A stretch of DNA of 64,000 nucleotides, taken from contig OY969814.1 in assembly GCA_963703345.1 (NCBI GenBank), positions 544,001-608,000 on the forward strand, written 5' to 3'. Under the pieces are notes generated by a model. The model was given only the letters and a program-made list of their open reading frames with translations, did no database searches and was not told the origin of the DNA. Shown piece by piece: positions 24,809-43,106 of the stretch. Made by a program: the position numbers and the translations under genes. This stretch comes from an uncultured Chloroflexia bacterium (GTDB taxonomy: Bacteria > Chloroflexota > Dehalococcoidia > DSTF01 > JALHUB01). Positions within the stretch are counted from its first letter, which is position 1. Each line of letters starts with the position of its first letter.

Positions 24809-24829
24809 AATTCGTTCTCGTTCTCGTGT

Positions 24830-24906: not shown

Positions 24907-25026
24907 CCTTCGCCCACAATCACCAAGAGCGGCAGGAGCCTTGCCCACGTGGGTCGGCGACCTGCCGTTAAGCCCCTATGGGGTCGTCTCCTGAGGAGAC
25001 GATGGGGGACAGGCAAGGAGGTTTCG

Positions 25027-25326: not shown

Positions 25327-25334
25327 GGGAAGGT

Positions 25335-25887: not shown

Positions 25888-26100
25888 CGGTCAAGTGAGA
25901 GAGACCGCCGAAGAATAGACCAGCTACTGGATGCCCCAATCGTATCTGGCCGGCGCTTTCCGAAGATCAACACTCCAATAATTAGGGTGTTATAATCGTC
26001 GAATCCGGCGGTCACGGTTGGCTTTTTGGGGCAGGATTTGAGACGTGGGCTACGAGGAGGTCGCCCCTGAGGAGGGTTTTTGAACCTGGCGAGAGGCTTT

Positions 26101-26294
26101 TGGAGGGCCGTGAGGGATTCGAACCCTCGACTCCCGGATTAAAAGTCAGAGCCTGTACCGCCGGACCTTCAGCTCCGCCCGCAGATTCGAATTCCGCCGT
26201 TTTAGCCGCCTGGCCAGACCGGATTCTCGTCGAGTCCAGTGCTCAGGTTCAGGTGCCCTCCGGAGTACCGGATTCGACGCAGCAATTGTACGCG
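26101..26294 (-). repeat. tRNA-Lys 3' fragment (26101-26147) plus type B arm
   Basis: 47 nt identical to the tRNA; 194 bp collinear with 42632-42825. Confidence 0.95.
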
Positions 26295-26433
26295 AATCTT
26301 CCCACTACTTCAACGATGACTCCGGTGCTCACGTTGGAGCGGTTAGCGAAGAGAGTACCGACCGGAGAGACAGTATCCGTGTCTCTCCAAGCAACTCGGG
26401 CAGGGGCGATGCCAGGTGGGGGGCAGGCCAAGG

Positions 26434-26919
26434 CTATGCCGACCTCTTCCCGTCAGCACTGGGGGCGCTGACGGCCGCTAGCTCACCCGCGATCCTGCCG
26501 GCAGCAGCCGGCAGAGCCCTCTCCACCTCCGGTGTGAACTGCTCGCCGAATGTGTAGGGGTCCTTGACGGCGACCACATATATGAGGAGCTCCTGCGGCA
26601 GCGGCAAGGACAGCTGGCGGGCCAGCTCCAGGGCCAGACGCAGGTTAACGCCGTGGCTTAGCCAGGCGCAACTCCCGCCCAACTCGTCTTCTCGCAGCCG
26701 GCGCACCTGACCGACTGCACTCCCATCACAGATGCTGTCGATGATGACGCCCCGATCGTAGTGAGTCAGAAGCTGAACGGTCTTGAGGCCTGCAACAGCC
26801 GCCTCTACCAGGTCTGCCCTGGGATCGCCGAGCAACTCATGAACACGCCGCGCCACCGAGAGGCCGGTGGCGTCGTCGGAGAGGATGGGGTTGCCCAGTC
26901 CCAGGATCAGTGTTTTCGT
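26434..26919 (-). CDS. Hydrogenase maturation protease (apparent ACG start)
   Basis: The in-frame N-terminus (T)KTLILGLGNPILSDDATG extends the ORF to an ACG at 26919, downstream of GGAGAG. Confidence 0.85.
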   Translation of the reverse strand, partial: TKTLILGLGNPILSDDATGLSVARRVHELLGDPRADLVEAAVAGLKTVQLLTHYDRGVIIDSICDGSAVGQVRRLREDELGGSCAWLSHGVNLRLALELARQLSLPLPQELLIYVVAVKDPYTFGEQFTPEVERALPAAAGRIAGELAAVSAPSADGKRSA

Positions 26920-26920
26920 T

Positions 26921-28408
26921 CTAGTCTCTCCGCAGTTCCTGAACTATCTTCCCCTGAGCATCGTAAATGTTCACTATGAGGGGCATCTCGCCGGGCAATG
27001 CGTGCGTGGCGCAGCCGAAGCAGGGGTCGTACGCGCGGAACGCCATTTCGATGCGGTTGAGGAGCCCCTCGGTGACCACCGTCCCCTTCTTGATCAGCCC
27101 CTGGCTGGCTTTCTTCACCGACATCGCGATGGCACCGTAGTTGTGAGCGGTGCCAACGATGAGGTTGACCTTGCGGGCGACCCCTCTCTCGTCGGCGTGG
27201 TAGTGGTGGATGAGAACACCGCGCGGCGCCTCGACTACGCCTACGCCCTCGCCTGGCGTGGCGGAAGGGATGGTACGAACGTCTGGGCTGGTGATCTCCG
27301 GGTCTGTGGCCAGTTCCACCATGCGCTCGGCGGCGTAGACGAGTTCGACGAGGCGGGCCCAGTGCGTCGCCAAGGTAGCGTGCACCGGCTTGCCCCCCAG
27401 GGTCGCGTACATGCGCTCGTACTCGGCCTGGGCAAGGGGGGTGGCCATCCCATCGGCGGCGTTGAGACGGGCCAAGGGCGCTACGCGGTAGATGCCACTG
27501 TCCTTGCCGTCAACGAGCCCCTGCCAGCCCAGCTTCTTCAAGTAGGTGAACTTGAGGTAGGTCCACGGTTCCACGTGCTCGGCTATGTGCTCCAGGTACT
27601 CCGACGGGTCGAACTTGAGGAACTCCTTCCCCTCCGGGTCCACCACCCGCAGCATGCCGTCGTAGAAGTTCGCTTTGTTGTCGGCGTCCACCAGGCCCAT
27701 GTAGTAGGTCTTGTGGGTGAAGGTATCGGATAGGATCATGTCAAGGTAGGTCTTGTTGGCCAACACCACGTCATCGAGGATCTTGAGAGAGAGCTTGCCG
27801 AATTCCACCGCCGAGCGGGCGATCCCCTCGATCTTGGCCCGCTCCTCCTCAGTGATGGGCTTGCTGACTCCGCCGGGAAGGCCGCAGACTGGGTGAATGT
27901 ACTTCCCCCCGATCATCGCCACCACTTCGTGGCAGAGCGCGAGGTGCTTCAGCACCTCGCCTCCGATCTCCAGGCCTACCTTTTGCACCACGCCGATGAT
28001 GTTTCGCTCAGCCGGAGGAGCGTCAGGACCTACCACAAAGTCAGGACCGCTCAGAGCATAGAAGTGCGTGGCGTGGTCGGCCACGAAGAAGGCGCTATAC
28101 AAGAGCTCTCGGAGCTTCTTGGCCGCCGGAGGGGGGTCTACCTTGAAGACGGCATCCAGAGTCTTGGCGGAGGCGATGTGGTGAGCCGACGGGCACACGC
28201 CGCAGATGCGCGAGGTGATGATCGGCAGGTCTTCGATCTGCCGGCCCTCGCAGAACTTCTCGAATCCCCTCAACTCAGGTACCTGAAAGTAGGCGTTTTC
28301 CACATCCCCCTCCTTGTCGAGGAAGATATCGATGCGGCCATGGCCTTCAAGGCGAGTGATCGGTTCGATGACTATGCGTCTTGTGGTGGGTTCGGAATCA
28401 GTGCTCAT
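26921..28408 (-). CDS. mvhA: [NiFe] hydrogenase large subunit, group 3c-like
   Basis: ITRLEGH, RGFEKF, SRICGVC, EAPRG, RAYDPCFGCATH. Confidence 0.93.
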   Translation of the reverse strand: MSTDSEPTTRRIVIEPITRLEGHGRIDIFLDKEGDVENAYFQVPELRGFEKFCEGRQIEDLPIITSRICGVCPSAHHIASAKTLDAVFKVDPPPAAKKLRELLYSAFFVADHATHFYALSGPDFVVGPDAPPAERNIIGVVQKVGLEIGGEVLKHLALCHEVVAMIGGKYIHPVCGLPGGVSKPITEEERAKIEGIARSAVEFGKLSLKILDDVVLANKTYLDMILSDTFTHKTYYMGLVDADNKANFYDGMLRVVDPEGKEFLKFDPSEYLEHIAEHVEPWTYLKFTYLKKLGWQGLVDGKDSGIYRVAPLARLNAADGMATPLAQAEYERMYATLGGKPVHATLATHWARLVELVYAAERMVELATDPEITSPDVRTIPSATPGEGVGVVEAPRGVLIHHYHADERGVARKVNLIVGTAHNYGAIAMSVKKASQGLIKKGTVVTEGLLNRIEMAFRAYDPCFGCATHALPGEMPLIVNIYDAQGKIVQELRRD

Positions 28409-28452
28409 AGTACCCCTTGCGTCATGACCGACAGAACGCGCTGAGCTCTTGC

Positions 28453-29448
28453 TTATTCAGCCGTTGCCCTGTCAAAAGAAAGGCTCTCAGTCTGACGGAC
28501 CCGTCGCAGCATTGACGCCGGCAGGCCGAAGAGATAGCAGACCCCTAGGAGATCAGGGAGTGTACTCGCTACCCGCTCGATCTCGTCCGGATCCTGAGTA
28601 TCGACGATAGAAGCCAGGGCGCTGAGAAGCTTTCCGCCCTGATCGATCACATTCGGCGGGGGCCCGTAGCAGCCCCGACACGGCATGTTGACCGAAGTGC
28701 AGGGCGCGCCACAGCCGCCCCGCGTGGCCGGGCCGGCGCAGACGATGCCTTGCTCCAGCAGGCAACGCGTCGGGTCCGGCACGATCTCATACGGCCGGTG
28801 GAAGCCCTTGATTCGCTTGTCTTCCTTAATGCGACCGCAGTCGTAGCAGACTGTCCTCTCGGACGCTCCCACGACCGAGCCCGGGGGAGGCAACTGGCCT
28901 GCCATCACGGCTTGCAACACCGCCCAGATTTGCTCCTTCACAGGCGGACAGCCCGGCACGAAGTACTCTACAGGCACCACCTGGTTCAGCGTCCGGACGG
29001 TGTCGTAGAACTCGGGCAGCGTAAGCTCTCCCTCGGGCATCTGATAGCTGAGCTGGGGACGGACGCCGTTTTCGTTGTCTGTGGACGCCGTGTCTCGGTA
29101 GACAAGGTCGAGGATGGACTCCCGGTTGGCGACGTTGGCCAGGCCCGGGATGCCGCCCGTGTGGGCGCAGGCGCCGAAAGCGACTAGCGCCTTCGACTTC
29201 TCTCTTAGCAGGTGCGCCAAGTGCTCCTGCTCAGAGTTTCTGATCGCCCCGTTGAACAGGCAGAGGTCGATGCTCTTGTCCGGCAGCGCCTCCACGTCCT
29301 TGTACTTGAAGTCCATGATGCAGGGCCAGAGAACGATGTCGAAGGCCTCGGCTACGTCCAGGATCTTAGCGTACAGCTCGACGACCGCGATCTCGCAGCC
29401 GCCACAGCTGGCGGCCCAGTACAGAGCTAGTTTCGGCTTCTGACCCAT
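28453..29448 (-). CDS. mvhG: [NiFe] hydrogenase small subunit
   Basis: ASCGGC, FGACA, VPGCPP, CRGCYG. Confidence 0.9.
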   Translation of the reverse strand: MGQKPKLALYWAASCGGCEIAVVELYAKILDVAEAFDIVLWPCIMDFKYKDVEALPDKSIDLCLFNGAIRNSEQEHLAHLLREKSKALVAFGACAHTGGIPGLANVANRESILDLVYRDTASTDNENGVRPQLSYQMPEGELTLPEFYDTVRTLNQVVPVEYFVPGCPPVKEQIWAVLQAVMAGQLPPPGSVVGASERTVCYDCGRIKEDKRIKGFHRPYEIVPDPTRCLLEQGIVCAGPATRGGCGAPCTSVNMPCRGCYGPPPNVIDQGGKLLSALASIVDTQDPDEIERVASTLPDLLGVCYLFGLPASMLRRVRQTESLSFDRATAE

Positions 29449-29466
29449 GACAACCCCCAGGCTTGG

Positions 29467-29907
29467 CTAACGCTGCTCGCTCACTGCTGTTTTCGCATCC
29501 TTCTTTAGCGGGCCCAGTTCCTTTATGGTCTTCGTGAAGTCTGCCACGACCTCGGCAAACCTGGCCCCTTCAGATGCCGAAACCCATTCCAGTCTCAGCC
29601 TCTCGGGCTCGATCCCGAAATCGCTGAGCATCTTTCTCAGCATGTGAATCCTTCTTTGTGCCTTGTAGTTTCCTTCCATATAGTGGCAATCACCCGGGTG
29701 GCAACCCCCGATCAGCACACCATCCACACCCCTAGAGAAGGCCTTCAGAATGAAGGTCGGATCGACCCTGCCACTGCACATCACTCTTATCATCCTCAGG
29801 TTGGGCGGATACTGGATTCTAGAGGTGCCTGCAAGGTCCGCGCCCGCATAGGTGCACCAGTTACAGGCAAAGCCAAGTATCAGGGGCTCAAACCCGTTCC
29901 TATCCAT
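29467..29907 (-). CDS. mvhD: Hydrogenase iron-sulfur subunit delta
   Basis: CNWCTYAGAD, RVMCSGRVD, GCHPGDCHY, WVSASEG. Confidence 0.95.
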   Translation of the reverse strand: MDRNGFEPLILGFACNWCTYAGADLAGTSRIQYPPNLRMIRVMCSGRVDPTFILKAFSRGVDGVLIGGCHPGDCHYMEGNYKAQRRIHMLRKMLSDFGIEPERLRLEWVSASEGARFAEVVADFTKTIKELGPLKKDAKTAVSEQR

Positions 29908-29935
29908 TGTCAGATCCTCTTCTCATATGCTTTCG

Positions 29936-31619
29936 CTACGCTTCCGTCAGAGCCTCTATCTGCGCCAGGATCTCTTGGTCTTCGAAATGATTCATTGTAA
30001 TCGCCCCGGATGGGCAGGCAGCCCCGCAGGTGCCGCATCCTTTGCACACCGCTTCGATGGTGCGGGCAAACGCTTTGCCATTCTCGCTGACCATCTGCAT
30101 GGCGCTATAAGGACAAAGAACGGCGCAGATGCCGCAGCCTCCACAGAGGTCCTCATTGACGGAAGAAGTAATGGCTTCAGGACTCACATGCCCTCTTTTC
30201 ATGGGTACCACTGCTTTGCCGGCGGCGGCGTAAGCCTGGAACACGGCTTCGGACACTTCGACTGGCCATCTGGCCGAGCCACATATGTAGATGCCATCCG
30301 TGGCAAATTCCACGGGCTGCAGTTTCAGGTGGGCCTCCAGGAAGAAGCCCTCCGAACTGAGGGGAACCTTGAGCATCCTGGAGATCCCCGCGTTGTCGCT
30401 CCGCGGAACAAGGGGTGTGGTCAGCACAACCATATCCGACGGAAGCTCCACCAATTTGCCTATCAACTGGTGGTAGACCCTGACACCCTTGACCCCGCCG
30501 TTCGCAACAACCTCGGGCGGGCTCCCCAGGCTGTACCTCACGAACCTGACACCCAGTTCCATCGCCTTTCGATAGTAGTCCTCGAACTCCACCCCATAGG
30601 CCATGATATCGCGATGGAGGATCCAGACGTTCGCCTCGGGGATCATTCTCCTTGATCAGCACAGCATTCTTGATCGCCGTCAGACAGCAGAACCTGCCGC
30701 AGTAGGGCCTTTCGGGGACGCGAGCGCCGACGCAGTTGATCATGACGACGTTCTTAGCCTCTACTGTATGCTGTTTCAGTCGTTCTTCCAGCTCGAGCTG
30801 AGTGAGCACGCCGTCCGTCTCACCGTAGCCGTACTGACCTGCCGGTTTGAGCTCCTCGGCGCCCACAGCGACTATGATGGTGCCGACTCTGAGCTTGCTT
30901 CCCTCCTCGCCTTGCTCCAAAATGACGTCGAAATTGCCTATGAAGCCCTTTACTTCCTTGACCTCTGTGGAGAGATGAGCCGTTATACGCTCATGGTTCC
31001 TCACCTGGTCAATGAGGGGCCCGATCAGTTCTCTGGCCTCTTTGTTGGTTGCGAAGAGTCGGTTTACATCAAGTAGCAGGCCACCGAGCTGTGCCTGCTT
31101 TTCCACCAGGTGGACCTCAAAACCCTGATTGGCCAGGTTCAGGGCTGCGGTCATTCCGGCCACGCCGGACCCGATTACTAGAGAAGCCGGAGTGACTTCA
31201 ATCTCGATCTCTTCCAGCGGCTTCAGTAGCCTGGCCTTCGCCACCCCCATTCTAACGAGGTCTTTGGCCTTTTCGGTGGCTTCCGTGGGGAGGGTCATGT
31301 GCACCCACGAGCATTGGTCCCTTATGTTGACGAACTCGAAGAGATACTTGTTCAGGCCCGCTTCCTGACAGGCAGACCTGAACAGTGCCTCGTGGGTTCT
31401 GGGGGTACAAGATGCCACTATGACACGGTTCAGGTCGTTTTCTTGAATCTTCTTCTTTATGGACGAGATGCCTTCTTCTGAACAGGTGTAGAGGTTGTGC
31501 TCGGCATGCGCTACATTGGGCAGACTCTTCGCGTACTCCACCACTTGGGGCACGTCGACATAGCCGCCGATGTTCCTGCCACAGTGACACACAAAGACGC
31601 CAATCCGGGTATCAGGCAT
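29936..31619 (-). CDS. hdrA: Heterodisulfide reductase subunit A-like protein (split by a +1 frameshift at about 30640)
   Basis: VFVCHCG, SCTPRTHE, NIRDQCSWVH, GSGVAG; C-terminal FLEAHLKLQPV and 2x[4Fe-4S] motifs lie in the second frame. Confidence 0.85.
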
Positions 31620-34326
31620 GCTCAGCACCCCCTGCTAGAACTTCAGCCGCTCGAGCCGCTGACCCGGATGCTTGAACCACCGAGTCCGGGATATCCCGAG
31701 GGCTGTGAGCATAGCCGCAGGCGAAGATCCCGGCCCTGCTGCTGTCCAGCGGGTGGGACAGGCGGTCCGGGATTTCCACGAAGCCGTGTTCATCTAAGGT
31801 TATGCCCAGCCTGGCCGCTAACTCCCGGACGCCCACAGACGGTACCAAGGCTTGGGCGAGGATGACCAGCTCGGTCTCGAAGGTCTTCGTTTCACGCGTG
31901 GTGGTATCCTCGTACAAGATGATCGGGTTGCCGTTCTCGGCAACGTCAATCCTTGCGGGCCGGCCTCTGACATATGTGACGTTATACTCATCTCTGGCAC
32001 GGGCGATGTACTCCTGGAATCGCTTGCCCACTGCCCTGAGGTCCATATAGAAGATGGTGGACTTCGTCCCAGGGTGGTGTTCGTACGCCAGTATGGCCTC
32101 CTTTGTGGCATGCATGCAGCACACGCTTGAGCAGTAGGCCTTGTGCCTGAAGTCTCGGGAGCCGACGCACTGGATGAATGCTATGTTCTTGGCCAGTTTG
32201 CCGTCAGAGGGGCGCATGAGCTCGCCGGCCGTAGGGCCAGAGGCCGAGGTAAGCCTCTCGTATTCCATGGCGGTGATTACGTTCTCTATCCTTCCATAGC
32301 CGTACTCGCCGAGCTTAGAAACGTCGTAGAGGTCTAAGCCAGTCGCGAGGATAACTGCGCCAACGTTGACGTCCAGGTACCGCTCTTCCTGGTCATAGCG
32401 TATGGCCTTGGCCTGGCAGGTCTTCTCACACAGCCTGCAGTCGGAGCAGACGGCGCAGTTTAGACAACGGTTCGCTTCCTCGATGGCCGCCTCCGTGGTG
32501 AGAGCGAGCTCTATCTCTTGAAAGTCCCTCACCCTCTCTTCAGGGGCTCTGAGGCGCAGCTCGACCCTCTCCCGCCGCTCGATCTCCCTCTCAGGGAGAG
32601 GCACGGGAGCCTCAGCCTCCTTCTCCCTCCCCTCCCGCAGGTCGAGACCGTTTATGAACCTGTCTATAGATATGGCCGCCTCGTTGCCTTGGGCGACAGC
32701 CTCTATGATCGATGCCGGGCCCCTGACGATGTCACCACCGGCGAAGACCCCGGGAAGGTTCGTCTCCAGCGTGACTTCATCCGCCCCGATTGTCCCCCGG
32801 GCAGTCTTCTCCAGACCCTCGAAGGCTGACAGGTCTGACCTTTGGCCAATGGCGATGATCAGCGTGTCCCCGGCTAGGGATGGCCCGGAACTCTCTGAGA
32901 ACTTGGGGGCGAACCTGCCACCCTCGTCGTAAACCGAGGTGCAGAGAACTGTTTCCAGCCCTGTCATCCGCCCATTCTCGCTCTGCACCATCTTCGGGCC
33001 CAGTGAACCATGGATGATGACGCCCTCTTCCTCCGCCTCCTCGATCTCCCAGCTATGGGCGGGCATCCTGTCCCTCGAGGTGAGGTCCCTCGTCTCAAGG
33101 CAGACAAGGTGGACCTCCTTCGCCCCCAGCCTCAGGGCGATCCTGGCACAGTCTATGCCGACGTTCCCGCCGCCGATAACTATCGCCCTCTGCCCGAAGC
33201 CTTCCACCTTCCCGCTCGCCTTCGCTTCCTGCAAGAAGGGGAGGCCGTAGAGCACGCCTTTGGCCTCCGCGCCCTCCACCGGGAGCCGCGCTGCGTCCTG
33301 GCAACCTACGGCTACGAAGACCGCCTTGTAGTCTCTCTTGAGTTGATCGAAGGTGATGTCCTTGCCAACTCTCGTGTTTGTCTTCACTTCCACGCCGCTC
33401 GCCAGCACACGGTCCACGTCGTAGCTGGCGATCTCTGTGGGGATGCGATAGTCGGGGATGCAGCCCGTGACCATGCCACCGGCCTTCCCCGACGCCTCGA
33501 AGACGGTGACCGGGTAGCCCATCTCCAACAGTCTCAGAGCGCAGGTGAGGCCTGAGGGCCCTGCTCCAACAACTGCCACCTTCTCCTCGCGCGTGGGCTT
33601 TAGGACCTGTGGAGGCGCCTCGCCGTTTTCCCTCGCCCAGTCTGAGATGAACCTCTTCAGCGCTCGGATGGAAACGGGCTCATCCACGTCCCGGCGGTTG
33701 CACTGATCTTCGCAAGGGTGGTGGCAGGCCCTGCCGCATATTGCTGGGAAGGGGAGCGTTTCGCGTACGACATCCAGGGCCTCTTGGAACTTTCCCTTGG
33801 AGGTCAGGGCAACATAGCCCTGAACCCTCGTGCCGGCCGGGCAGCCATCTCTGCAGGGGGAGATGCCTCTTCTATCGATGACGTAGAGGTTGGGAATCGC
33901 TTGGGCGAAGGGCTTGTAGATGGCCTTTCTCTTGCCCATGCCCTGGTTGAACTCGCTGAGGATCTCAACCGGACATTGCTCTGCACACTCTCCGCAGCCG
34001 GTGCATTTGGTCTCATCGATGTAGCGGGGCTTCATCAGTATCCTGGCCTGGAACCTCCCCAGCTCTCCCTCCACCGCCGCGACCTCGGAGTAGCTCAGCA
34101 CCTTGACGTTCTCGTGGCGGTAGCACTCGATCATCTTGGGGGCGAGGATGCACATGGCGCAGTCGTTGGTGGGGAAGGTCTTGTCCAACTGAGCCATTCT
34201 CCCGCCGATTGAGGGAGACTGCTCCACCAGATAGACTTGAAAGCCCATGTTGGCCAGGTCGATGGACGCCTGGATGCCGGCAATGCCTCCGCCGACTACC
34301 AGCACTGAGTTATTGTTGTCGCTCAT
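31612..34326 (-). CDS. HdrA-like protein with inserted GltD-like NAD(P)H oxidoreductase domain (HdrL type)
   Basis: LDKTFPTNDCAMC; PCRDGCP, ICGRACHHPCE, GAGPSG, GGGNVG; QCVGSR, CSSVCC. Confidence 0.88.
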   Translation of the reverse strand: MSDNNNSVLVVGGGIAGIQASIDLANMGFQVYLVEQSPSIGGRMAQLDKTFPTNDCAMCILAPKMIECYRHENVKVLSYSEVAAVEGELGRFQARILMKPRYIDETKCTGCGECAEQCPVEILSEFNQGMGKRKAIYKPFAQAIPNLYVIDRRGISPCRDGCPAGTRVQGYVALTSKGKFQEALDVVRETLPFPAICGRACHHPCEDQCNRRDVDEPVSIRALKRFISDWARENGEAPPQVLKPTREEKVAVVGAGPSGLTCALRLLEMGYPVTVFEASGKAGGMVTGCIPDYRIPTEIASYDVDRVLASGVEVKTNTRVGKDITFDQLKRDYKAVFVAVGCQDAARLPVEGAEAKGVLYGLPFLQEAKASGKVEGFGQRAIVIGGGNVGIDCARIALRLGAKEVHLVCLETRDLTSRDRMPAHSWEIEEAEEEGVIIHGSLGPKMVQSENGRMTGLETVLCTSVYDEGGRFAPKFSESSGPSLAGDTLIIAIGQRSDLSAFEGLEKTARGTIGADEVTLETNLPGVFAGGDIVRGPASIIEAVAQGNEAAISIDRFINGLDLREGREKEAEAPVPLPEREIERRERVELRLRAPEERVRDFQEIELALTTEAAIEEANRCLNCAVCSDCRLCEKTCQAKAIRYDQEERYLDVNVGAVILATGLDLYDVSKLGEYGYGRIENVITAMEYERLTSASGPTAGELMRPSDGKLAKNIAFIQCVGSRDFRHKAYCSSVCCMHATKEAILAYEHHPGTKSTIFYMDLRAVGKRFQEYIARARDEYNVTYVRGRPARIDVAENGNPIILYEDTTTRETKTFETELVILAQALVPSVGVRELAARLGITLDEHGFVEIPDRLSHPLDSSRAGIFACGYAHSPRDIPDSVVQASGSAARAAEVLAGGAEHA

Positions 34327-35513
34327 CTTCTACCCCTAAGGCACTAGCAACGAATTCTGCCAGATCCATGACGGGAATCTCCACGTCGGGGCCCTTTGCT
34401 TTCCCCTTGCTCACCATCGCACACTTGAAGTGAATTTGGCATTTCGGGCAAGAAGTTATGAGGACCTCGGCGCCGGTGGATTTCGCCTCAAGCAATCGCT
34501 CAACGCGTATCTGTTTGGAGTATAAGTCGCAGTTCGTGAAGGCGCTGGTGCCGCAGCAGAGTGACTCCTCCCTGTTCCGGCCCATCTCGAGCAGTTCTAT
34601 CCCGGGGATAGCCTTCAGCACGTCCCTCGGCGCCTCATAGACCCCCAGATGCCTGCCCAGCCGACAGGGGTCGTGGTATGTGACCTTCCTCTTGACCTCT
34701 TTGAGACCGAGTCCGTCCTTGTCTATCCTGTCGGCCAGAAGTTCGCTGATGTGCTGAAGCTCGCAATCTAGTTCCACGTACTTCGGGTAGTCTTCTTTGA
34801 AGGTCCGGTAGCACTCAGCGCAGGAGAAGACAATCTTCTTCACCCCCGCCTTCTTGATCATCGCGGCGTTCTGCTCCGCCAGCGCCTTGAAGCCGTCCAC
34901 GTCTCCCGTCCAGAGCAGGTCGTGGCCACAGCACTTCTCATCCTCGCGCACGACGGGCTCTATTCCCAGCGAATTGAGAAGCCTGAGGCTCCCTCTTGCG
35001 GGCCTTGAGAGACTCGACGTCAATGTCCTCAAAGACGGGCTCAAAGTAGGGGGCACACCCGACAAAAAACAGGACGTCGCCTTCGGCAGAGACTCGAGTC
35101 CCGTCGGATAGCCACTCCAGCCGTCGCTGGGCGATGGACGAATTCGCCATCAGCCGGCTCAGAGATTGCAGTGTGCCGGAGTGGGCGCAGGCTCCATGCT
35201 GACCACGATTTGACGCCAAGGCCCTGGTCTTCTGAATGAAGAGGGGATAGTCGACATCTGAGGGGCATTTAGAACTACAAGCGTAGCAGGTCAGGCAGGA
35301 GAAGAGCTCGCGAGCGTAAACCAGGTCATCCTCGAGGCCAAGTAGAGCTTTCTCGACCATCACTCGCGGGGAGTAGGCCGGGTTATGCCTTGAAACCGGG
35401 CACGAGCCCGAGCACTTGCCACACTCCAGGCAATAGTATGCCTTGGTCTCATTGATGACTTGCTCCAGGCGAGGGTGTGCCTTCGTCTCCTTGACAACTT
35501 GCTCTAGCGTCAA
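34310..35513 (-). CDS. HdrD/GlpC-like Fe-S oxidoreductase (split by a +1 frameshift at about 35001)
   Basis: Two CxxCxxCxxxCP motifs, FFVGC; then CCG, YHDPC and SCPKC in the second frame. Confidence 0.85.
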
Positions 35514-35932
35514 GCTATGGCCTCCTTTCTGAACGGCGAGGGGCCAAGTTGTTTCAACTGATCAACATACCCTTTGATCGTTTCGGCAAACCCGCCTCCC
35601 TCGGCCGCGGAGATCCACTCCAGCTTCAGGCGCTCGTCCTCCAACCCCAGCGTGTGCAGCAACCTCCTGAGCTTCGCTGTCCTCTCTTCTGCCCTCTTGT
35701 TCCCTGAGATGTAGTGGCAATCTCCGATGTGGCAGCCGGCAAGCAGGACGCCATCAAATCCCCCCTCAAAGGCTTTGAGGACGTAGATGGGGTCGATCAT
35801 TCCACTGCACATCACCCTTATGATCCGCACGTTTGACGGATAGTTGATGCGACTTGTCCCGGCTAGATCAGCCGCTGCATATGAACACCAGTTGCAGGTA
35901 AAGGCGACGATCTGTGGTTCGAATCCGTTCAC
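35510..35932 (-). CDS. mvhD: Hydrogenase iron-sulfur subunit delta (second copy)
   Basis: CNWCSYAAAD, GCHIGDCHY, WISAAEG. Confidence 0.93.
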   Translation of the reverse strand: MNGFEPQIVAFTCNWCSYAAADLAGTSRINYPSNVRIIRVMCSGMIDPIYVLKAFEGGFDGVLLAGCHIGDCHYISGNKRAEERTAKLRRLLHTLGLEDERLKLEWISAAEGGGFAETIKGYVDQLKQLGPSPFRKEAIA

Positions 35933-37917
35933 ACTGGTACTCCCGATAACGCCTCAAGCTCGGCTAGTATTTGTTGACGAGTGAAGTGCCTGATGGAGAT
36001 GGCTCCCGTGGGACAGGTGACGGCACAAACTCCACAGCCTTTGCACAGGGCCTCGTTAATTGAGGACACTGGTATCATCCTCCCGTTGCTGATCAGGGTG
36101 GGGGCATGAAACACGCAGATCTCTTCGCACCGCCCACACCCCTGACATAACGTCTCATCTACGGTGGCCGTGGCCGCCTGCAGCTCCACGCTCCCTTTAT
36201 CGATGAGGGCCAGGGTCTCAGCCGCTCCAGCCAGGGCCTGCGCAACAGTGTCCGGGATGTCCTTTGGGCCCTGGGCACATCCGATTACGAAGACGCCGTC
36301 GTTGGCGGTCGCGACCGGCTCCAGCTTGGCGTGTCTCTCCTGGAGGAAACCGTCGGCGCTCTGAGTGAGGTTGAAGAGCCGCGCCACATCTCGAGCGTCG
36401 GACCGTGCCTCCATGGCCGGGCAAAGAACCACCATGTCCACGGGAACTCGCAGTTGGCGCCCGATCAGCGTGTTCTCGCACACCACGACGAGCTTCCCCT
36501 GTTCCTCCTCGCTGAGGGCGAGATCCGTGACCTGAGCCGGCTTGCCCCGGATGAAAGTCACGCCCTCGCTGCCCTCTCTCTGGAAGAACTCCTCGAATCC
36601 CTTGCCGTAGCAGCGCATGTCTATATAGAACTGGTAAACGTTGGCGTCCTCGATCTTCTCCTTGATCAGATGAGCGAACTTTAGGGCATACATGCAGCAG
36701 ACGCGGGAGCAGTACGAGTGGTATTTCCGGTCGCGGCTACCGACGCAGTGGATGATGCCCACGCTCTTCGGCTCCTGGCCGTTGATGACGATGTGGCCGC
36801 CGGTGGGGCCGGTGGCGTTGCAGAGACGCTCGAATTGGAGGCTGGTGATCACGTTGGGGAACTTGCCGTAGCCGAGTCGGGCGATCTCTGAGGGGTCCAT
36901 CAGGTCGTAGCCGGTGGCCACGACAACGGCGCCTACCTCGACGTCTACAATCTTCTCCGTCTGGCTGAAGTCTATGGCTCCCCGTTCGCAGAACTTCAGG
37001 CAGGCGCCGCACTTGCCGTCTTTGAGAATGTAGACGCAATGCTCCGGGTCAATCACCGGGACGTTAGGGACTGCTTGCGGGAACGGCGTGTAGATGGCCT
37101 TCCGCTGTCCCAGGCCGCAATCGAACTCGCTCTCCGTCTTCCAGGGGCACTTCTCCTGGCAGATACCGCAGCCCGTGCACAGGCTCTCGTCCACGTAGCG
37201 GGGCTTTCTGCGGATGGTAGCCCTGAAGTTGCCCACGTAGCCCTGGACATCCACCACCTCGCTGTAGGTCATTAGCTCGATGTTGGGATGGGACTTCACC
37301 GCCGCCATCCTGGGCGTCAAGATGCAGGCCGAGCAGTCCAGGGTAGGAAAGGTCTTGTCTATCTGGGTCATGTGCCCACCGATGGACGGCTCTCGCTCGA
37401 CCAGATATACTTTGCGGCCCGCATCGGCTACCTTCAGGGCGGCCTGAATCCCGGCGATACCCCCACCGACCACGAGGACGGCAGGCTCGACCGGCACCTC
37501 TCGACTCTCCAGAGGTTCCAGGTAGTAAGCGCGCGAGATGGCGGCACTGATCAGGGCCTTGGCCTTGTCGGTTGCGCCGTCCTTGTGCACCCACGAGCAC
37601 TGCTCACGGATGTTACAGATGTGAAGCTGATACGGGTTCAGCCCGCCGTCTTCAACGACGCGGCGGAAGGTTGGCTCATGCATGCGCGGCGAGCAGGCCG
37701 CCACGACGACACGGTTGAGGCCGAGTTCCTCGATGTCTTGTTTGATGAGGGCCTGACCCGGCTCGGAGCACATGAACTTATAGTTGCGGGCTACCGCGAC
37801 TGAGCCTCGCTCCTGCGCGAAAGCCGTCACTTGCTCAACATCGACTGTGCCAGCGATGTTGCTGCCGCAATGGCAAACGTAAACGCCTATCTTGACGTCG
37901 TTCTTGTCTTCTGCCAT
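35929..37917 (-). CDS. hdrA: Heterodisulfide reductase subunit A
   Basis: VYVCHCG, ACSPRMHE, GGGIAG, DKTFPTLDCSAC, HCVGSR, C-terminal ferredoxin motifs. Confidence 0.95.
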   Translation of the reverse strand: MAEDKNDVKIGVYVCHCGSNIAGTVDVEQVTAFAQERGSVAVARNYKFMCSEPGQALIKQDIEELGLNRVVVAACSPRMHEPTFRRVVEDGGLNPYQLHICNIREQCSWVHKDGATDKAKALISAAISRAYYLEPLESREVPVEPAVLVVGGGIAGIQAALKVADAGRKVYLVEREPSIGGHMTQIDKTFPTLDCSACILTPRMAAVKSHPNIELMTYSEVVDVQGYVGNFRATIRRKPRYVDESLCTGCGICQEKCPWKTESEFDCGLGQRKAIYTPFPQAVPNVPVIDPEHCVYILKDGKCGACLKFCERGAIDFSQTEKIVDVEVGAVVVATGYDLMDPSEIARLGYGKFPNVITSLQFERLCNATGPTGGHIVINGQEPKSVGIIHCVGSRDRKYHSYCSRVCCMYALKFAHLIKEKIEDANVYQFYIDMRCYGKGFEEFFQREGSEGVTFIRGKPAQVTDLALSEEEQGKLVVVCENTLIGRQLRVPVDMVVLCPAMEARSDARDVARLFNLTQSADGFLQERHAKLEPVATANDGVFVIGCAQGPKDIPDTVAQALAGAAETLALIDKGSVELQAATATVDETLCQGCGRCEEICVFHAPTLISNGRMIPVSSINEALCKGCGVCAVTCPTGAISIRHFTRQQILAELEALSGVPV

Positions 37918-37927
37918 CGGCACCCTC

Positions 37928-38839
37928 CTAACCCGGTCCGGAGGCACTGCCGGCGCCGCTCGAAACGGTGGCGCCGACCGCTATCTTTCTGTAAAGGCGG
38001 TCAACAGGCACAGTGTTTCGCTGAAGCCCCAACGCCTTTTCCGGCAGGCCAAAGGCCAGGCCCATTATCTGGGTGAGGAAGAGGATCGGGATCTCGAAGT
38101 GGGTACCCCTGGCCCGCCCTGCCTCCTTCTGGAAGCTGTTGAGGTTGAACATGCAGAGAGGGCAGGCGGTGACGATGCAGTCGGCATCGCCTGCTGCAGT
38201 GAGCAGGTCCCCGATGAGCTTGGCGCCTATACTGCGCTTGGACATGGAAAGGGTGCCACCGCAGCATGCCGTCTTGAGCGGGTAGTCCACAATCTGAGCC
38301 CCAAGGGTCCCCAACAGTTCGTCGAAGCAGCGCGGGTCCTCGACCGAGTCAAACTGGGCATACGTCCACATGCCCTGGCAGCAGCCGTAGTAGGGAGCCA
38401 CCCGCAGCCCGCCGAGAGGCCTTTTGACCTTCTCTGCCACCGCGTCCAAGCCGACATCGTTGATGATGACGTCCAGGACGTGGCGCAGTCGGGCCTTCCC
38501 TGAGTACTGGACCCCTGTCTCGGCCAGCAGGACGTTCACTTTCTCGCGCACGCTGGCGTTGTTCTCGGTGTAGTGAACTGCCCGGATGAGGTTCATGTAG
38601 CACCGGCTACACCCCGTCACAAGGTCACTCTCCGCCCGCTCTGCGAGTGCCAGGTTACGAGCGGGGAGAGCGAGAGAGAGCAGATAGCTGACTCCATTGG
38701 CCATAGCCGCCCCGCAGCAGTTCCAGTCCTCCAACTGGGTTAGCTCCACTCCCAAGTGCCGCATCGTAGCCTGGAGGGATTCCTCGCACTCCTTCGAGGT
38801 ACCGCTTGCGGAACAGCCGGGATAGTAGGCGTACTTCAT
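37928..38839 (-). CDS. hdrB: Heterodisulfide reductase subunit B
   Basis: YYPGC, DWNCCGA, YYGC, CCGG, TACPLC. Confidence 0.93.
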   Translation of the reverse strand: MKYAYYPGCSASGTSKECEESLQATMRHLGVELTQLEDWNCCGAAMANGVSYLLSLALPARNLALAERAESDLVTGCSRCYMNLIRAVHYTENNASVREKVNVLLAETGVQYSGKARLRHVLDVIINDVGLDAVAEKVKRPLGGLRVAPYYGCCQGMWTYAQFDSVEDPRCFDELLGTLGAQIVDYPLKTACCGGTLSMSKRSIGAKLIGDLLTAAGDADCIVTACPLCMFNLNSFQKEAGRARGTHFEIPILFLTQIMGLAFGLPEKALGLQRNTVPVDRLYRKIAVGATVSSGAGSASGPG

Positions 38840-39414
38840 GGCCTGCCCTCGATCTCTGCAGCTTTGCGGAACATCGCTGCTATGGCTTTCTGACTTCGCA
38901 TTTTTGGTGGTCTCAGCGCGATCTTGCCTTTGCGCAGAAGCGTTAGGCCCACGCCCACCTGTTCACGCAAACGCAATGGGTTAGGGGCATAGTAGCGGAC
39001 CAGGAATTCCGCCTCGTGGAAGCGGCCCTGACGCTCAACCGTGTCCATGAAGGCTTGGTACCAGCGTCTGATATGGGGGTCCGCGTGCTTTTCGGCCAGG
39101 CTGAGCCGCTGGATGACGCCCATCATGTCGGTCACCGCCACACCCCTCGGGCAGCGAAACGTGCAGGAGTAGCAGGCGGTGCAGAGCAGCCCCGCGCCAC
39201 TCGCCACCGCTTCCTTCACAAGCCCTAACTGGAGCAGGTTCATGACCTGCCGGGGCGTGTACTTCATCGCATAGGCGGTGCGGCAGCTACCGGTGCAGAG
39301 GCCACACTGGTAACAGAGCGAGAAATCATTTCCCACCAGGTCTGTCGAGGAAGGGGTGTGTCCCGGTACCTGCGGTGTCCATGCCCCCTCGAGTGTCTTC
39401 GGCTGCGCCCCCAT
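38836..39414 (-). CDS. hdrC: Heterodisulfide reductase subunit C
   Basis: CYQCGLCTGSC and CTACYSCTFRCPRG; adjacent to hdrB. Confidence 0.9.
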   Translation of the reverse strand: MGAQPKTLEGAWTPQVPGHTPSSTDLVGNDFSLCYQCGLCTGSCRTAYAMKYTPRQVMNLLQLGLVKEAVASGAGLLCTACYSCTFRCPRGVAVTDMMGVIQRLSLAEKHADPHIRRWYQAFMDTVERQGRFHEAEFLVRYYAPNPLRLREQVGVGLTLLRKGKIALRPPKMRSQKAIAAMFRKAAEIEGRP

Positions 39415-39559
39415 CTTACGTCCCCCTAAAGTGAATAGCCGCGACGGGCTCCAATCCTACGACTTCTTCCATCTTCCTGCCGGTCGCCGGGGACCCCTGG
39501 AGGACGCCCCTCAGAGACCGCAGCGGTGGTATCTGGACATCAACGTTGATGTCTATCCC

Positions 39560-40021
39560 CTATCTCAGATGCCCGCTATCGAATTGGGTGGACAAGAACG
39601 GCGACCTGTACTTCTGTCTCTGCCGCTCGCAGAGTTCTTCTAACGTGGTCGACCCGAGGAATCCCGTCATTATTCCTCCCAGCTCTACCCAGAGGTCGCG
39701 TGCGCCGCAGGTGGCGCAGCGGGGGCAGACCTGCGGACGGTCGACGCACTCAACAGGCGTGAGCGGGCCCTCCAAGACATTCAAGATGTCGAGGATGGTG
39801 ATTTCGGATGCCGCCTTAATAAGTCCGACTCCGCCGCCGGTGCCGCGAACTGCCCTTAACAGGCCCTGCGCCTCCAGTCGCGCAGTCAGGTGTTCAAGGT
39901 ACTTCTTGGATATTTCCTGCCGTTCGGCGATGTCGTTGAGGTGAACGAGGCCCTCGTCGGCGTGCAGAGCAACGTCCAGCATCGCCCTTGTTCCGTACCT
40001 GCCCTTGGTAGAGACTCTCAT
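39560..40021 (-). CDS. Rrf2-family regulator
   Basis: STKGRYG, IAERQEISKKYLE, VRGTGGG, Cys cluster. Confidence 0.95.
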   Translation of the reverse strand: MRVSTKGRYGTRAMLDVALHADEGLVHLNDIAERQEISKKYLEHLTARLEAQGLLRAVRGTGGGVGLIKAASEITILDILNVLEGPLTPVECVDRPQVCPRCATCGARDLWVELGGIMTGFLGSTTLEELCERQRQKYRSPFLSTQFDSGHLR

Positions 40022-40138
40022 GTTTTCGGCCCTTCTGTGGCCACTTACTCTATCGACTTAGTCATTATCATATTCACCCAAGTTCTCGTCGCGCCTCCTC
40101 TAACACGAAGAGAGCTTATGGGGTTGGGTAGTAGGGGA

Positions 40139-41488
40139 TCATGTTCGCCAGCTCCGACCAAGGCGGTCACTGGTCGATGGAGACACGGGCGTTCTCGACG
40201 AAGGGTCAATGATCAGCAGACCGCCGGAATTGGGTGGCGCCGGTTTAGGCAGGCCGCATAGCGTATCTCCGAAAAATCTTTCTAGCTCTCGTATTCCGTC
40301 CGCCAGCGCATCGATTTCCTGGCGACGATTGTAGACGTAGAAGCTGGCACGCGCGGTCGCCTCGACACCCAGCCGCTTCAACAGTGGCTGCGCGCAGTGA
40401 TGGCCTGCCCTTACGGCAATGCCGTGGTAATCAAGGACGGTGGCGACGTCATGCGAGTGAATGTTCTCATAGTTGAAGGCGAGAGCGCCGCCGCGCTTGG
40501 AAGCGTCACGAGGTCCGTAGACGGTGATGCTTGGTATCTTCTCCAGTGTTCGGATGGCATAATCCATAAGGTCGACATCGTGCTGCCGAACCGCTTCCAT
40601 GCCCAGCCCCTCCAGATAATCGATGGCGACACCGAAGGCAAAGACTCCGCCAATATCAGGCGTGCCTGCTTCCCACCGCCAGGGCGCGACATTGTAGGTC
40701 GCCTCTCGGAGCTCGACGTGCGAGATCATGTGCCCGCCTCCGAGAAACGGTCCCATGTTCTCCAGGACGGCTGGTCGCGCGTAGAGTATGCCGATGCCCA
40801 TTGGGCCCAACATCTTGTGGCTGGAGAAAGCGAGGAAGTCACAGTCCAGCTCTTGTACGTCGACCGGCATATGCGGAACGCTCTGCGCGCCATCGACGAG
40901 CATGAGCGCTCCGTAAGCATGAGCAATCTCGCTGATCTCCCGAATCGGGTTGATGGTGCCGAGCACGTTCGACATTTGCGTCAGCGCCACAAGCTTTGTC
41001 TTCTCGCCGATGAGCTGCTGCACGTCGTCCCAGCGCAGCAGGCCCTCGTCGTCGATGTCTATAAAGCGAAGCGTGACTCCCGTCGCCTGCGCCAGCATCT
41101 GCCAGGGGATCAGGTTGCTATGGTGCTCCATGACGCTGAGGACGATCTCATCGCCCTCTTTCACGTGTTGCGAACCCCAGGCATACGCCACGAGGTTGAT
41201 CGCCTCCGTCGCGTTGCGCGTAAAGATGATGCTCTCGGCTGCCGGCGCATTGATGAATCGACGAGTCTTCTCCCGCGCCTCCTCGTAGAGCGTGGTCGCC
41301 TCGTCACCGAGGGTATGGATGCTGCGATGGACGTTGGCGTTGTGCCCGTGGTAGTACTCGACTAGGGCATCAGTGACGGCTAGTGGCTTCTGGCTGGTAG
41401 CCGCATTGTCGAGGTAGACCAGCGGCTTATTGTGGATCATCCGTTGCAGGATGGGGAAATCTCGTCTGATGAGTTCCACGTCTAGCAT
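40139..41488 (-). CDS. sufS: Cysteine desulfurase, SufS type (possible alternative start at 41653)
   Basis: YLDNAATSQKP, MEHHSN, FSSHKMLGP, RAGHHCA. Confidence 0.95.
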   Translation of the reverse strand: MLDVELIRRDFPILQRMIHNKPLVYLDNAATSQKPLAVTDALVEYYHGHNANVHRSIHTLGDEATTLYEEAREKTRRFINAPAAESIIFTRNATEAINLVAYAWGSQHVKEGDEIVLSVMEHHSNLIPWQMLAQATGVTLRFIDIDDEGLLRWDDVQQLIGEKTKLVALTQMSNVLGTINPIREISEIAHAYGALMLVDGAQSVPHMPVDVQELDCDFLAFSSHKMLGPMGIGILYARPAVLENMGPFLGGGHMISHVELREATYNVAPWRWEAGTPDIGGVFAFGVAIDYLEGLGMEAVRQHDVDLMDYAIRTLEKIPSITVYGPRDASKRGGALAFNYENIHSHDVATVLDYHGIAVRAGHHCAQPLLKRLGVEATARASFYVYNRRQEIDALADGIRELERFFGDTLCGLPKPAPPNSGGLLIIDPSSRTPVSPSTSDRLGRSWRT

Positions 41489-41930
41489 CGCCGGCTCCTC
41501 TTTCGAGGCAGACCTCAAGTCCGTCCCGTCGATTCCGATGGCCTGCCTATCAGAGGCTGAATGAGCGGGCGATGTCGGCCCGGTCACCGATCGCTTCGCC
41601 ACACTGGCCGTCGGAATCGAGGTCGTCATACTAGCGGCTGTCACATCCTGCATACGCTCATCACCTCCTGCAGTATCTGACCGTAGATGTCGGGAAAGGT
41701 GTAAGCACCTTGAGCGAGGCGGCGACAGAGGATGCTTTTGCGAAGAGGGACCTGATCTTCTATTACGACGAGCGCGCCACCGCTCAGCCGTACTGCCAAC
41801 GAGCGTCTCTTCAAGATAAAGATTCCCCACCTTTGCTTCGCTGACGGGAATGATGGTCACCAATGGCAGAGCCGGGACGCCGACTGTCTCTCTCCAGCTC
41901 TGGCCTATCGATAAATCTAGAAGCCGCCCC

Positions 41931-41995
41931 CTCTAGGTATTTATGCTTAGACCCCTCTAAGTATTTATGCTTAGTCTCTAGGTATTTATGCCTAG
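41931..41995. promoter_or_regulatory. Three tandem 20-bp palindromic boxes CTCTARGTATTTATGCYTAG
   Basis: Copies at 41931, 41955 and 41976; each contains the near-inverted repeat CTARGTAT-TT-ATGCYTAG. Confidence 0.7.
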
Positions 41996-42166
41996 AACTA
42001 ACCTTTGGCCCAAGTATATGACAGTCTTTCCATATGTCAAGCGCTTCACCTGTAAAAACTTGTCGTTTTGTGGAAATGCAGGTTCGCGCGTGGAGGGAGA
42101 CGACCGATAGCTTACTGAACCCCGTGCGTTTCCGGGAGCGCTCGTCGACCCACCATGAAGATGTCG

Positions 42167-42283
42167 CTCGACTTCATCGGCATCAACCTCTACTCGCGCG
42201 CCGTCGTGGCGGACAACCCGGAAGACAAGAACACGGGCGCGCAGCGAATCGAGCCGCCCGACATCGAGCGGACCGATTTCGGC
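42167..42283 (+). pseudogene. Internal fragment of a GH1 beta-glucosidase
   Basis: LDFIGINLYSRAVV...ERTDFG resembles the GH1 DFxGxNYY...TxxGW segment. Confidence 0.6.
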
Positions 42284-42631
42284 CCATCATAATGATTTAG
42301 AGTTCGGGCTCGGGCCGGGTGGCCAGCGAAGAAGACGCCGCCCGGAGGGCAGTTTTCGTATCTCCTCAAGGGCTCCGGACAGCCGTGATTCGATGCGAAT
42401 CCCGGACTTAGAGTCTGGCACTCTGCCTGGAGAGATGAGGGAAGAGGAGAACGCTCACAAGCGACGGCAATCGTATCTGTTTCAGTGGTCTCAGAAGGCT
42501 GGAGGGGTTCGAACGTCAGGCCTGAAAACTTCGAGTCCGGTGCTCAGATTGGCTCTTTGGGGCGATAATTGGAGGCGTAAGCGAAGAAGAGTCCACGCTA
42601 GAAGGCCGAAATCGAATCTGAAAATGGCCTC

Positions 42632-42825
42632 TGGAGGGCCGTGAGAGATTCGAACCCTCGACTCCCGGATTAAAAGTCAGAGCCTGTACTGCGGAGCCTT
42701 CAGGCCCTACCGCAGATTCGAATTCCGCCGTCTTGACCGCCTGGACCGACCGATTTCTTATCGAGTCCAGTGCTCAGGCTTGAGAGCCCTCTGGAGCACC
42801 GGATTCAACGCAGCAATTGTATGCG
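42632..42825 (-). repeat. tRNA-Lys 3' fragment (42632-42678, one mismatch) plus type B arm
   Basis: Collinear with 26101-26294. Confidence 0.95.
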
Positions 42826-42833
42826 CTAAGTCC

Positions 42834-42869
42834 CGCGATTCCAGACGGCGGCCGCCGTCTGGAATCGCG
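42834..42869. repeat. Perfect 36-bp spacerless palindrome
   Basis: CGCGATTCCAGACGGCGG|CCGCCGTCTGGAATCGCG. Confidence 0.9.
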
Positions 42870-42919
42870 ACCCGGAGATGGCGGTCCTGGGTTGCCCCTC
42901 GCCGCTCTCCCAAATGTGG

Positions 42920-42986
42920 ACGGAACATTGACACCCCACAGGTCCTCGGTGGTCTTCACCACGAGTACGAGTGGGTGGCCGCTTGA
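42920..42986 (+). pseudogene. C-terminal remnant of an rve (integrase core) transposase
   Basis: VLGGLHHEYEWVAA-stop, a typical C-terminus for this family. Confidence 0.6.
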
Positions 42987-43106
42987 CTTGCGCAGATACG
43001 GATGTAATATTGTTGCCCCACAGCCCGAAGCGAAGGATGTCCACATGGTCTGGTTCCGCGCCGGCCGCTGCTATCTCATCGACTTCGTCAATCCGTAATA
43101 GGAGTC

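Follow-up and report, generated by a model that had tools for sequence, protein, structure and literature searches.

An integrase-less tRNA-Lys island carrying a predicted Hdr-Mvh electron-bifurcation module, with probable recent spread among species and genera of Chloroflexota

We analysed a 64,000-nucleotide stretch of DNA (hereafter the window) from an uncultured Chloroflexia bacterium (contig OY969814.1, positions 544,001 to 608,000), in which heterodisulfide reductase (hdr) and [NiFe] hydrogenase (mvh) genes fill one unit of an array located behind a tRNA-Lys gene. The source genome, G000, is a single contig of 2.28 Mb with 64.4% GC (95.85% complete, 0.59% contamination), in which the window corresponds to C1:544001-608000. 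We compared it to the 8 other genomes of the genus and to the 93 genomes of the order, G000 included. An initial annotation made from the sequence had described a complete Hdr-Mvh module of 13 co-oriented genes, bounded by attachment (att) sites and moving horizontally as one piece. All 13 genes are indeed found on the minus strand in the order proposed:

41933-41995, no strand assigned: three 18-bp near-palindromes in tandem, located upstream of sufS and candidate operators for Rrf2
40139-41494, minus strand: sufS, SufS-family cysteine desulfurase, above the TIGR01979 cut-off
39560-40021, minus strand: rrf2, Rrf2-family regulator with a C-X6-C-X5-C motif
38836-39414, minus strand: hdrC
37928-38839, minus strand: hdrB, with two CCG domains
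35929-37917, minus strand: hdrA, canonical, type I
35510-35932, minus strand: mvhD, first copy
34310-35513, minus strand: hdrD-like gene, Fer4 dicluster and two CCG domains
31612-34326, minus strand: hdrL, or type III hdrA, into which a GltD domain (GGGNVG motif) is inserted
29936-31628, minus strand: third hdrA, which has Fe-S domains at the N and C termini and lacks an inserted ferredoxin domain
29467-29907, minus strand: mvhD, second copy
28453-29448, minus strand: mvhG, small subunit
26921-28408, minus strand: mvhA, large subunit of the [NiFe] hydrogenase, placed in group 3c by its context
26434-26919, minus strand: HycI-type hydrogenase maturation protease

The genes are enclosed by copies of the 3' half of the tRNA-Lys gene and by conserved non-coding arms:

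50828-50902, minus strand: intact tRNA-Lys(TTT), anchor of the array
42632-42676, minus strand: tRNA-Lys(TTT) 3' half with anticodon loop, upstream boundary, attL-like
42400-42631, minus strand: non-coding arm after the tRNA half, putatively the P'-side, homologous in G003
26146-26300, minus strand: non-coding conserved 'type A' arm, putatively the P-side
26101-26145, minus strand: tRNA-Lys(TTT) 3' half with anticodon loop, downstream boundary, attR-like

Two direct repeats of 200 nt, at 26095-26294 and 42626-42825, are 86% alike and lie 16,531 bp apart, and both consist of the tRNA-Lys(TTT) 3' half and a conserved arm. The unit is thus att-bounded at both ends, as initially described. Identity to the tRNA ends at the anticodon loop (26139-26145 and 42670-42676), and the unit proper is 26146-42676, 16,531 bp. 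The earlier span of 26101-42631 had the right length, but its boundaries have to be shifted by 45 bp; the distance of about 140 bp between the protease gene and the arm was estimated correctly (140 bp). With these displaced tRNA halves at its ends, the unit has the boundaries expected of a tRNA-integrated genomic island. Its GC content is 59.7%, compared with 64.4% for the genome, and an equally low value is found in 9 of 567 genome windows. Copies of the tRNA-Lys 3' half are located at 45399, 42632, 26101 and 24379, with a degenerate copy near 25838, and they divide the array behind tRNA-Lys into four integrase-less units of 5,429, 2,767, 16,531 and 1,722 bp. The arms before the tRNA halves come in two types, type A at 26146 and 42677 and type B at 24424 and 45444. 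Both are found genus-wide and are kept over 125-165 bp between species. The second type A arm of the array extends over 42677-42825, and further copies are present at C1:180005 and C1:2277900 of G000, and in G003, G006 and G017.

We next examined which relatives carry the unit, a check that had been suggested at the outset, and found its distribution to be patchy. One of the eight other genus members, G003, has it; it is absent from G002, which is 97% complete and sister to G003 by RpoB phylogeny, and from the single-contig genome G008, and G005 contains an mvhA fragment at 55% identity and nothing more of the unit. The tRNA-Lys regions of G003, G006, G007 and G008, examined on both flanks, lack the unit. 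The distance from tRNA-Lys to the point where the shared backbone resumes is ~2 kb for G007 and ~7.5 kb for G008, compared with 43 kb in G000. Within the order, 9 of the 93 genomes, G000 among them, match the 3' 9.6 kb of the unit at E<=1e-150.

The copy in G003 comprises all 13 genes and both arms, with 94.9% DNA identity over 15,604 columns (26112-41707) and an alignment that continues to 42547 at 80.7%. It is located at a different site, between tRNA-Sec and a Sec 3' half, and its flanks align elsewhere in G000 at 82-84%; the tRNA-Lys gene of G003 lies on another contig and is followed by different cargo. Homology to the G000 unit stops inside the tRNA-Lys half at both ends, at a 7-bp repeat, and includes nothing of the neighbouring units. 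Taken by themselves, these ends faintly suggest a unit-length piece that was re-inserted through a different crossover. The G003 copy also bears on the concern that the G000 unit was misassembled across the repeated tRNA halves or derives from another organism. The repeats are near-identical over ~47 bp, and neither junction is spanned by the sequencing-run contigs that we examined. However, the repeats are short, G000 is one contig of low contamination, and the independent assembly of G003 contains the same unit, ending in the same way, which makes such an artefact very unlikely. The runs were available as contigs, hence cover of the unit was judged from contigs: 20 of the 24 listed runs (16 studies) contain part of the stretch, and six of them were examined (X1, X2, X3, X4, X7 and X19). 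Contigs from X2 cover the unit and leave the neighbouring units almost uncovered; we did not count missing cover as evidence. The RNA run X19 contains pieces from a related strain over much of the unit, which do not show transcription.

Among other relatives, G013, a member of another genus, carries two parts of the unit on two contigs, sufS to hdrA at 92% identity and the mvhA-protease end at 97%. G016 has the hdrL-to-protease part at 88%. The version in G009 is shorter (hdrCBA-mvhD-mvhGA-protease), with sufS, rrf2 and the mvhD-hdrD-hdrL-hdrA block being absent. Of the 18 metagenome loci that have a type A arm, L189 and L197 likewise contain the 3' end of the unit, at 93-97% and ahead of the arm, and in L189 a tRNA-Gly fragment comes next. 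In these relatives the cargo resembles that of G000 more closely than core genes do. DNA identities to G000 for mvhA and rpoB are 97.0 and 92.3% in G003, 98.1 (over 523 nt) and 82.6% in G013, 90.0 and 81.8% in G016, and 87.5 and 77.5% in G009. At fourfold-degenerate sites, with paralogue matches (35-62% protein identity) left out, cargo identity is 75.8-95.4% (14 segments) in G003 versus 62.7-78.8% for four core genes, 79.8-95.9% (6 orthologous segments) in G013 versus 42.9-52.8% for three core genes, 66.4-79.6% (6 segments) in G016 versus 58.3% for rpoB, and 61.5-69.1% (5 segments) in G009 versus 50.1%. This excess at fourfold-degenerate sites rules out mere protein conservation.

A cluster that is ancestral in the family, vertically inherited and lost in most species, with its location between att repeats being incidental, would account for part of the pattern. 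MvhA of G000, G003, G013, G016, G009, G012, G019 and G023 forms one clade (support 100) that is native to the order and separate from G010, G011, G014 and G021, in a tree of 31 rows that includes 19 of 80 loci and contained no classified reference sequences. Moreover, the operons of G012, G019 and G023 are short and lack arms, and their mvhA has diverged to the same extent as rpoB (77-79%), in keeping with vertical descent of these three. For the close relatives, the site in G003 and the fourfold-site identities largely refute this explanation. In addition, each carrier has different flanks, and the position of G009 and G016 changes between trees: they fall with G011 and G014 by RpoB but with G000 by MvhA. 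MvhA phylogeny was among the checks called for initially. We thus consider ancestry followed by loss extremely improbable for the unit as a whole. The syntenic, vertically inherited cluster in relatives without att repeats that would have contradicted the proposed movement was not found in close relatives; rather, the whole unit at a new site in G003, together with the excess synonymous identity, lends good support to recent horizontal movement as one piece. As the single MvhA clade is native to the order, its sequences place the exchange within the order, and we name no donor.

How could a unit of this kind move? None of the six PF00589 (tyrosine recombinase) and three PF07508 (large serine recombinase) matches in the genome lies in the window, where we found a 57-residue recombinase fragment near 10610-10780. 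The 13 annotated genes filling the unit include no relaxase, conjugation or replication gene, and no recombinase remnant was found in the unit, the gene remnants at its edge being of other kinds. A short coding remnant at 42165-42285, between the arm and the sufS promoter, has a 70% match near the tRNA-Lys region of G010 and resembles a family 1 glycosidase motif. In G003, a tyrosine integrase gene (C19:8116-9216) lies right behind tRNA-Lys, in a 25-kb element (L031 8116 to L032 12878, contig C19) whose genes also include Replic_Relax, CHAT and AAA genes; this integrase-plus-relaxase element is a candidate helper. Of the 20 loci of this integrase family, 4 lie at tRNA-Lys(TTT) and 5 at tRNA-Arg(TCT); a further 5 are found at Gly, Leu or Pro, and the other 6 show no tRNA.

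Based on these findings we regard the unit as an island without integrase in a tandem array behind tRNA-Lys, one that carries the Hdr-Mvh module and has likely spread recently among species and genera using an integrase from elsewhere. A tyrosine integrase of a helper element, for example that of G003, would carry out recombination between the arms at the anticodon loop, so that the unit is excised as a circle of its own length. It could then re-enter at tRNA-Lys, or be captured in Sec- or Gly-bounded elements and be carried along with them.

Apart from the vertically descending operons described above, several observations weigh against this mechanism. At 7 bp, the repeat at the G003 ends is short given that the DNA is GC-rich. 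No tRNA-half arms are present in the examined flanks of the G013 and G016 copies, and the G003 integrase element ends in a type B arm, while the Hdr unit has type A arms. Among the 18 metagenome loci, most of them on short contigs, none has a whole integrase beside the type A arm, and four have C-terminal pieces. An excised circle or a bridged attP junction was not found in the run contigs. Finally, the nearest counterpart in G000 of the Lys integrase from G003 shares only 42% identity with it and is encoded at tRNA-Pro; the cognate enzyme may therefore be missing, and the unit may be fixed or dormant in this genome. An apparent attP joint in X2 (42819 to 26294) was not counted, as over 42250-42900 no piece listed for four runs connects the far arm with the unique 5' end of the unit. 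We also considered a phage vehicle, but exact patterns of either arm motif gave 0 matches in viral contigs.

Some of these points would equally be expected if the cargo had spread mainly by homologous recombination or illegitimate capture between islands, with the arms being relics of old integration events that serve as homology patches only. The near-identical, seemingly arm-less copies in G013 and G016 adjoin DNA that is shared with G000 at ~92% (L131 754-3147 and L136 650-5000, corresponding to C1:4315-6709 and C1:1028966-1034041) and that points to a common cargo pool. Identity along the unit is uneven, with rrf2 at 80% versus hdrC at 98% protein identity in G013 and the 5' end at 81% in G003, suggesting mosaic replacement, and the missing circle fits as well. 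On the other hand, homology to G003 ends in a tRNA half on both sides, at a new locus whose flanks are not shared, and both types of arm are conserved over 125-165 bp across species. We thus regard spread mainly by recombination as unlikely, and prefer integrase-mediated movement of the unit in trans.

Similar fragment arrays are found elsewhere in the genome. G000 has 51 tRNA-fragment matches outside called tRNA genes, which form arrays for Lys, Val(TAC), Gly(CCC), Pro(GGG) and Sec that are often mixed and distant from the cognate gene. A tRNA-Sec array (L139, C1:162-180 kb) contains genes for TauE, DsbA/VKOR, ETF, a flavin oxidoreductase, catalase and rhodanese and ends in a Lys type A arm; the counterpart site in G003 is occupied by the Hdr unit. 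A tRNA-Gly(CCC) island (L141-L142, C1:2241.6-2277.4 kb) carries DruA, HerA-like, UvrD/PD-(D/E)XK, methylase and integrase genes. The second tRNA-Lys(TTT) called by ARAGORN (L144, C1:1904771-1904849) consists of a 3' half and a type B arm, the latter mimicking the 5' acceptor strand. A far broader scheme, in which Chloroflexota exchange integrase-less cassettes genome-wide through Lys, Val, Gly, Pro and Sec arrays, whole energy-conserving modules, the present one included, travel as unit-length circles that are mobilized in trans by roaming integrase elements and switch arrays, and bifurcation is a plug-in trait across genera, is tentative and on balance improbable.

Other units in and around the Lys array are of different content:

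45444-50872, plus strand: unit adjoining the tRNA (TetR regulator, MacAB-like efflux)
42677-45443, plus strand: adjacent unit (radical SAM, cupin), which has different surroundings in metagenome loci L191 and L198

The MacAB-like efflux genes of the first of these (45774-50456) have a paralogous set outside the array at 57922-61866, 71-75% alike. In the small unit at 24635-25685, remnants of a hydrolase-cyclase gene flank a second tRNA-Arg(GCG) and a DUF4405 gene.

We investigated the predicted chemistry of the module by comparing its subunits to the methanogen HdrABC-MvhAGD complex (PDB entry 5ODC). The first HdrA matches its counterpart with 727 bits, and Glu363 and Lys413 align with Glu356 and Lys409, the equivalents of which are invariant in all three HdrA paralogues (the third taken from G003). 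In the available parts of PMC12054007 these two residues are proposed as marks of a bifurcating HdrA, and the accessible text of PMC10734219 likewise covers Lys409, along with the role of the methanogen complex. Ten of ten HdrB cluster cysteines align with 5ODC, with a Cys in place of His154, and MvhA has intact RICGVC and DPCFGCATH cysteine motifs. The best NCBIfam models for MvhA, MvhG and MvhD are VhuA, VhuG and VhuD, and the three proteins are encoded together with hdr genes. HdrL residues ~154-560 match GltD/NfnB models and structures, and its N- and C-terminal Fe-S domains are missing; the third HdrA has exactly these missing domains, from which we infer that HdrL and the third HdrA form a heterodimer. 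The scores themselves argue against too close an assignment: none of HdrA, HdrB, HdrC, MvhA, MvhG and MvhD reaches the NCBIfam cut-off of its methanogen family, and the best PDB match of MvhA is the 7T2R large subunit (405.7 bits) rather than MvhA of 5ODC (387.2 bits), scores that do not separate the two. With scores below these cut-offs and no McrA detected, the module does not classify as a methanogen coenzyme B-coenzyme M (CoB-CoM) heterodisulfide reductase, and the lack of McrA in the host makes CoM-S-S-CoB an unlikely substrate.

Bifurcation by the module is thus suggested by conserved residues. MvhAG would oxidize H2, and MvhD would hand the electrons to the flavin of HdrA, where they may be split between ferredoxin and a disulfide other than CoM-S-S-CoB that is reduced by HdrCB. 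HdrL and the third HdrA, with their complementary halves, could add an NAD(H) port together with HdrD. SufS, under control of Rrf2, would provide sulfur for Fe-S clusters, and the host would provide nickel insertion and Fe-S scaffolding. A different function for the same genes is also conceivable, namely a fermentative valve from NAD(H) and ferredoxin to H2 (confurcating and H2-evolving), or a supply to the MetFV-Hdr system of the host, rather than respiration from H2 to a disulfide. McrA, DsrC and CdhC were not matched in the 96% complete genome, and HdrL carries a GXGXXG motif that is interpreted as NAD-preferring in the available part of PMC12054007. The host also has a metF-hdrC-hdrB-hdrA/L-mvhD-metV locus at C1:867-875 kb (L148 9101-17444), in which hdrA/L encodes a 1552-residue HdrA/HdrL fusion, despite no CdhC being found. 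Yet all ten HdrB cluster cysteines are present, and it is the hdrCBA-mvhD-mvhGA part that G009, G010, G011, G012 and G021 have kept. We regard the valve as a real possibility that falls short of our preferred H2-oxidizing, bifurcating function. A second NiFe hydrogenase of G000 (L149 9059-12859, C1:931-935 kb) has an in-frame TGA in its large-subunit gene, as in several genus members, which probably encodes selenocysteine.

The initial description of the module as complete was not confirmed. The six subunits of HdrABC-MvhADG are intact, with hdrC, hdrB, the first hdrA, mvhD, mvhG and mvhA being open and full length, but two other genes are frameshifted. The hdrD-like gene has a net +1 frameshift near 35003-35008 and the third hdrA one near 30637-30642; their G003 orthologues are intact (400 and 561-563 residues, respectively). 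Both lesions could be one-base extensions of runs. Among our test open reading frames, 2 of 12 are split in the unit and 0 of 63 outside (~48 distinct places, antisense shadow frames included), and with only 2 of 75 split the assembly is not error-ridden. The extra base at 30642 is missing in X2, X3 and X19, and X1, the closest strain (depth 3.2), shows no sign of its deletion. We lean towards real decay in this strain rather than sequencing error, and the HdrD-HdrL-third HdrA branch is probably broken here. None of the 13 unit proteins matches a Hyp family; hypD of G000 is located at C1:1.51 Mb, outside the unit, and in G011, G019 and G021 it lies close to the operons. The module is not self-sufficient, requiring the Hyp and Fe-S machinery of the host and an integrase from outside.

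Features of the cargo ends are shared by other copies. The triplet of near-palindromes is also present in G003 and G013, and has 0 matches in the rest of G000 (three genome-wide matches at <=2 mismatches, all in the unit, using a pattern derived from these three). At 26919-26917 in the protease gene we find ACG, which is conserved in G003, G009, G013, G016, G019 and L197 and is ATG in G012 and G023; this may be a conserved non-canonical start codon that restricts the protease level. The cassette SufS is 81-82% identical to chromosomal SufS of G007 and G008 versus 66% to that of G000 itself, and by this similarity sufS was probably recruited from this genus.

Hdr-Mvh clusters often serve to infer the lifestyle of uncultured lineages. 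Here it is an accessory module, patchy in distribution and recently passed between genera, so its presence says little about close relatives. With its defined att boundaries and a candidate integrase as helper, the 16.5-kb unit makes the movement of integrase-less tRNA cassettes testable, as well as the question of what bacterial HdrABC/HdrL complexes reduce without CoM, CoB and DsrC. Our literature searches, which covered listings and the beginnings of abstracts, with subscription papers and supplements outside their scope, returned no paper on an Hdr-Mvh module or hydrogenase cluster on a tRNA island or Chloroflexota mobile element that describes this element.

We compared the unit to known systems, based on the accessible portions of the papers cited in what follows. 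Hdr-Mvh clusters are of a known kind in Chloroflexota, and hdrABC-group 3c clusters have been described in Anaerolineae and Dehalococcoidia (bioRxiv 10.1101/2021.08.23.457424). Integrase-less tandem islands at tRNA or tmRNA genes are likewise known, as cis-mobilizable elements (CIMEs; PMC5704250) and as the ssrA islands of Dehalococcoides (McMurdie et al. 2011, PMC3146451). Of the latter, 15 are without an integration module, and their respiratory cargo (vcrABC, rdhA) is younger than host divergence. Like the Hdr unit, the ssrA islands, which occur in the same phylum, are arranged in tandem behind one RNA gene whose 3' part recurs as repeats at their boundaries. In contrast, the Hdr unit resides at tRNA-Lys with the break at the anticodon loop, its candidate enzyme is a tyrosine and not a serine recombinase, it keeps long conserved arms, and Hdr-Mvh cargo is found in different tRNA arrays in different species. 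With CIMEs it shares the lack of integration and transfer genes, both att sites being kept, tandem units and a candidate helper at the same tRNA of a relative. However, CIMEs are defined as decayed integrative and conjugative (ICE) or integrative and mobilizable (IME) elements mobilized in cis, and no integrase remnant was found in the Hdr unit. The tycheposons of Prochlorococcus (bioRxiv 10.1101/2020.12.28.424599) resemble it in tRNA integration, plug-in metabolic cargo and island building, but have their own integrase and usually replication genes. The Hdr unit has neither, and thus lacks the integrase that marks an IME, ICE or tycheposon.

The cargo shares with methanogen HdrABC-MvhAGD the six subunits, the FAD-site Glu and Lys, and the HdrB and NiFe cysteines, and differs in being att-bounded, in the additional mvhD-hdrD-hdrL-hdrA block, sufS and rrf2, and in the lack of a detectable McrA in its host. 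HdrL is similar to that of Desulfobacterium autotrophicum (PMC2702500) and to type III HdrA (PMC12054007) in its GltD-like NAD(P)H-binding insert and its position beside hdrA, hdrD and mvhD, but unlike D. autotrophicum HdrL it is accompanied by a second HdrA with exactly the domains that HdrL is missing. In Hydrogenovibrio SP-41 (PMC6501319), H2 conversion has also been gained by transfer, there with group 1d/2b enzymes, here with a group 3c-type hydrogenase and Hdr, bounded by tRNA sequences. Both halves of the Hdr unit are therefore of known kinds; what is new is predicted electron-bifurcating cargo that crosses genera and tRNA arrays.

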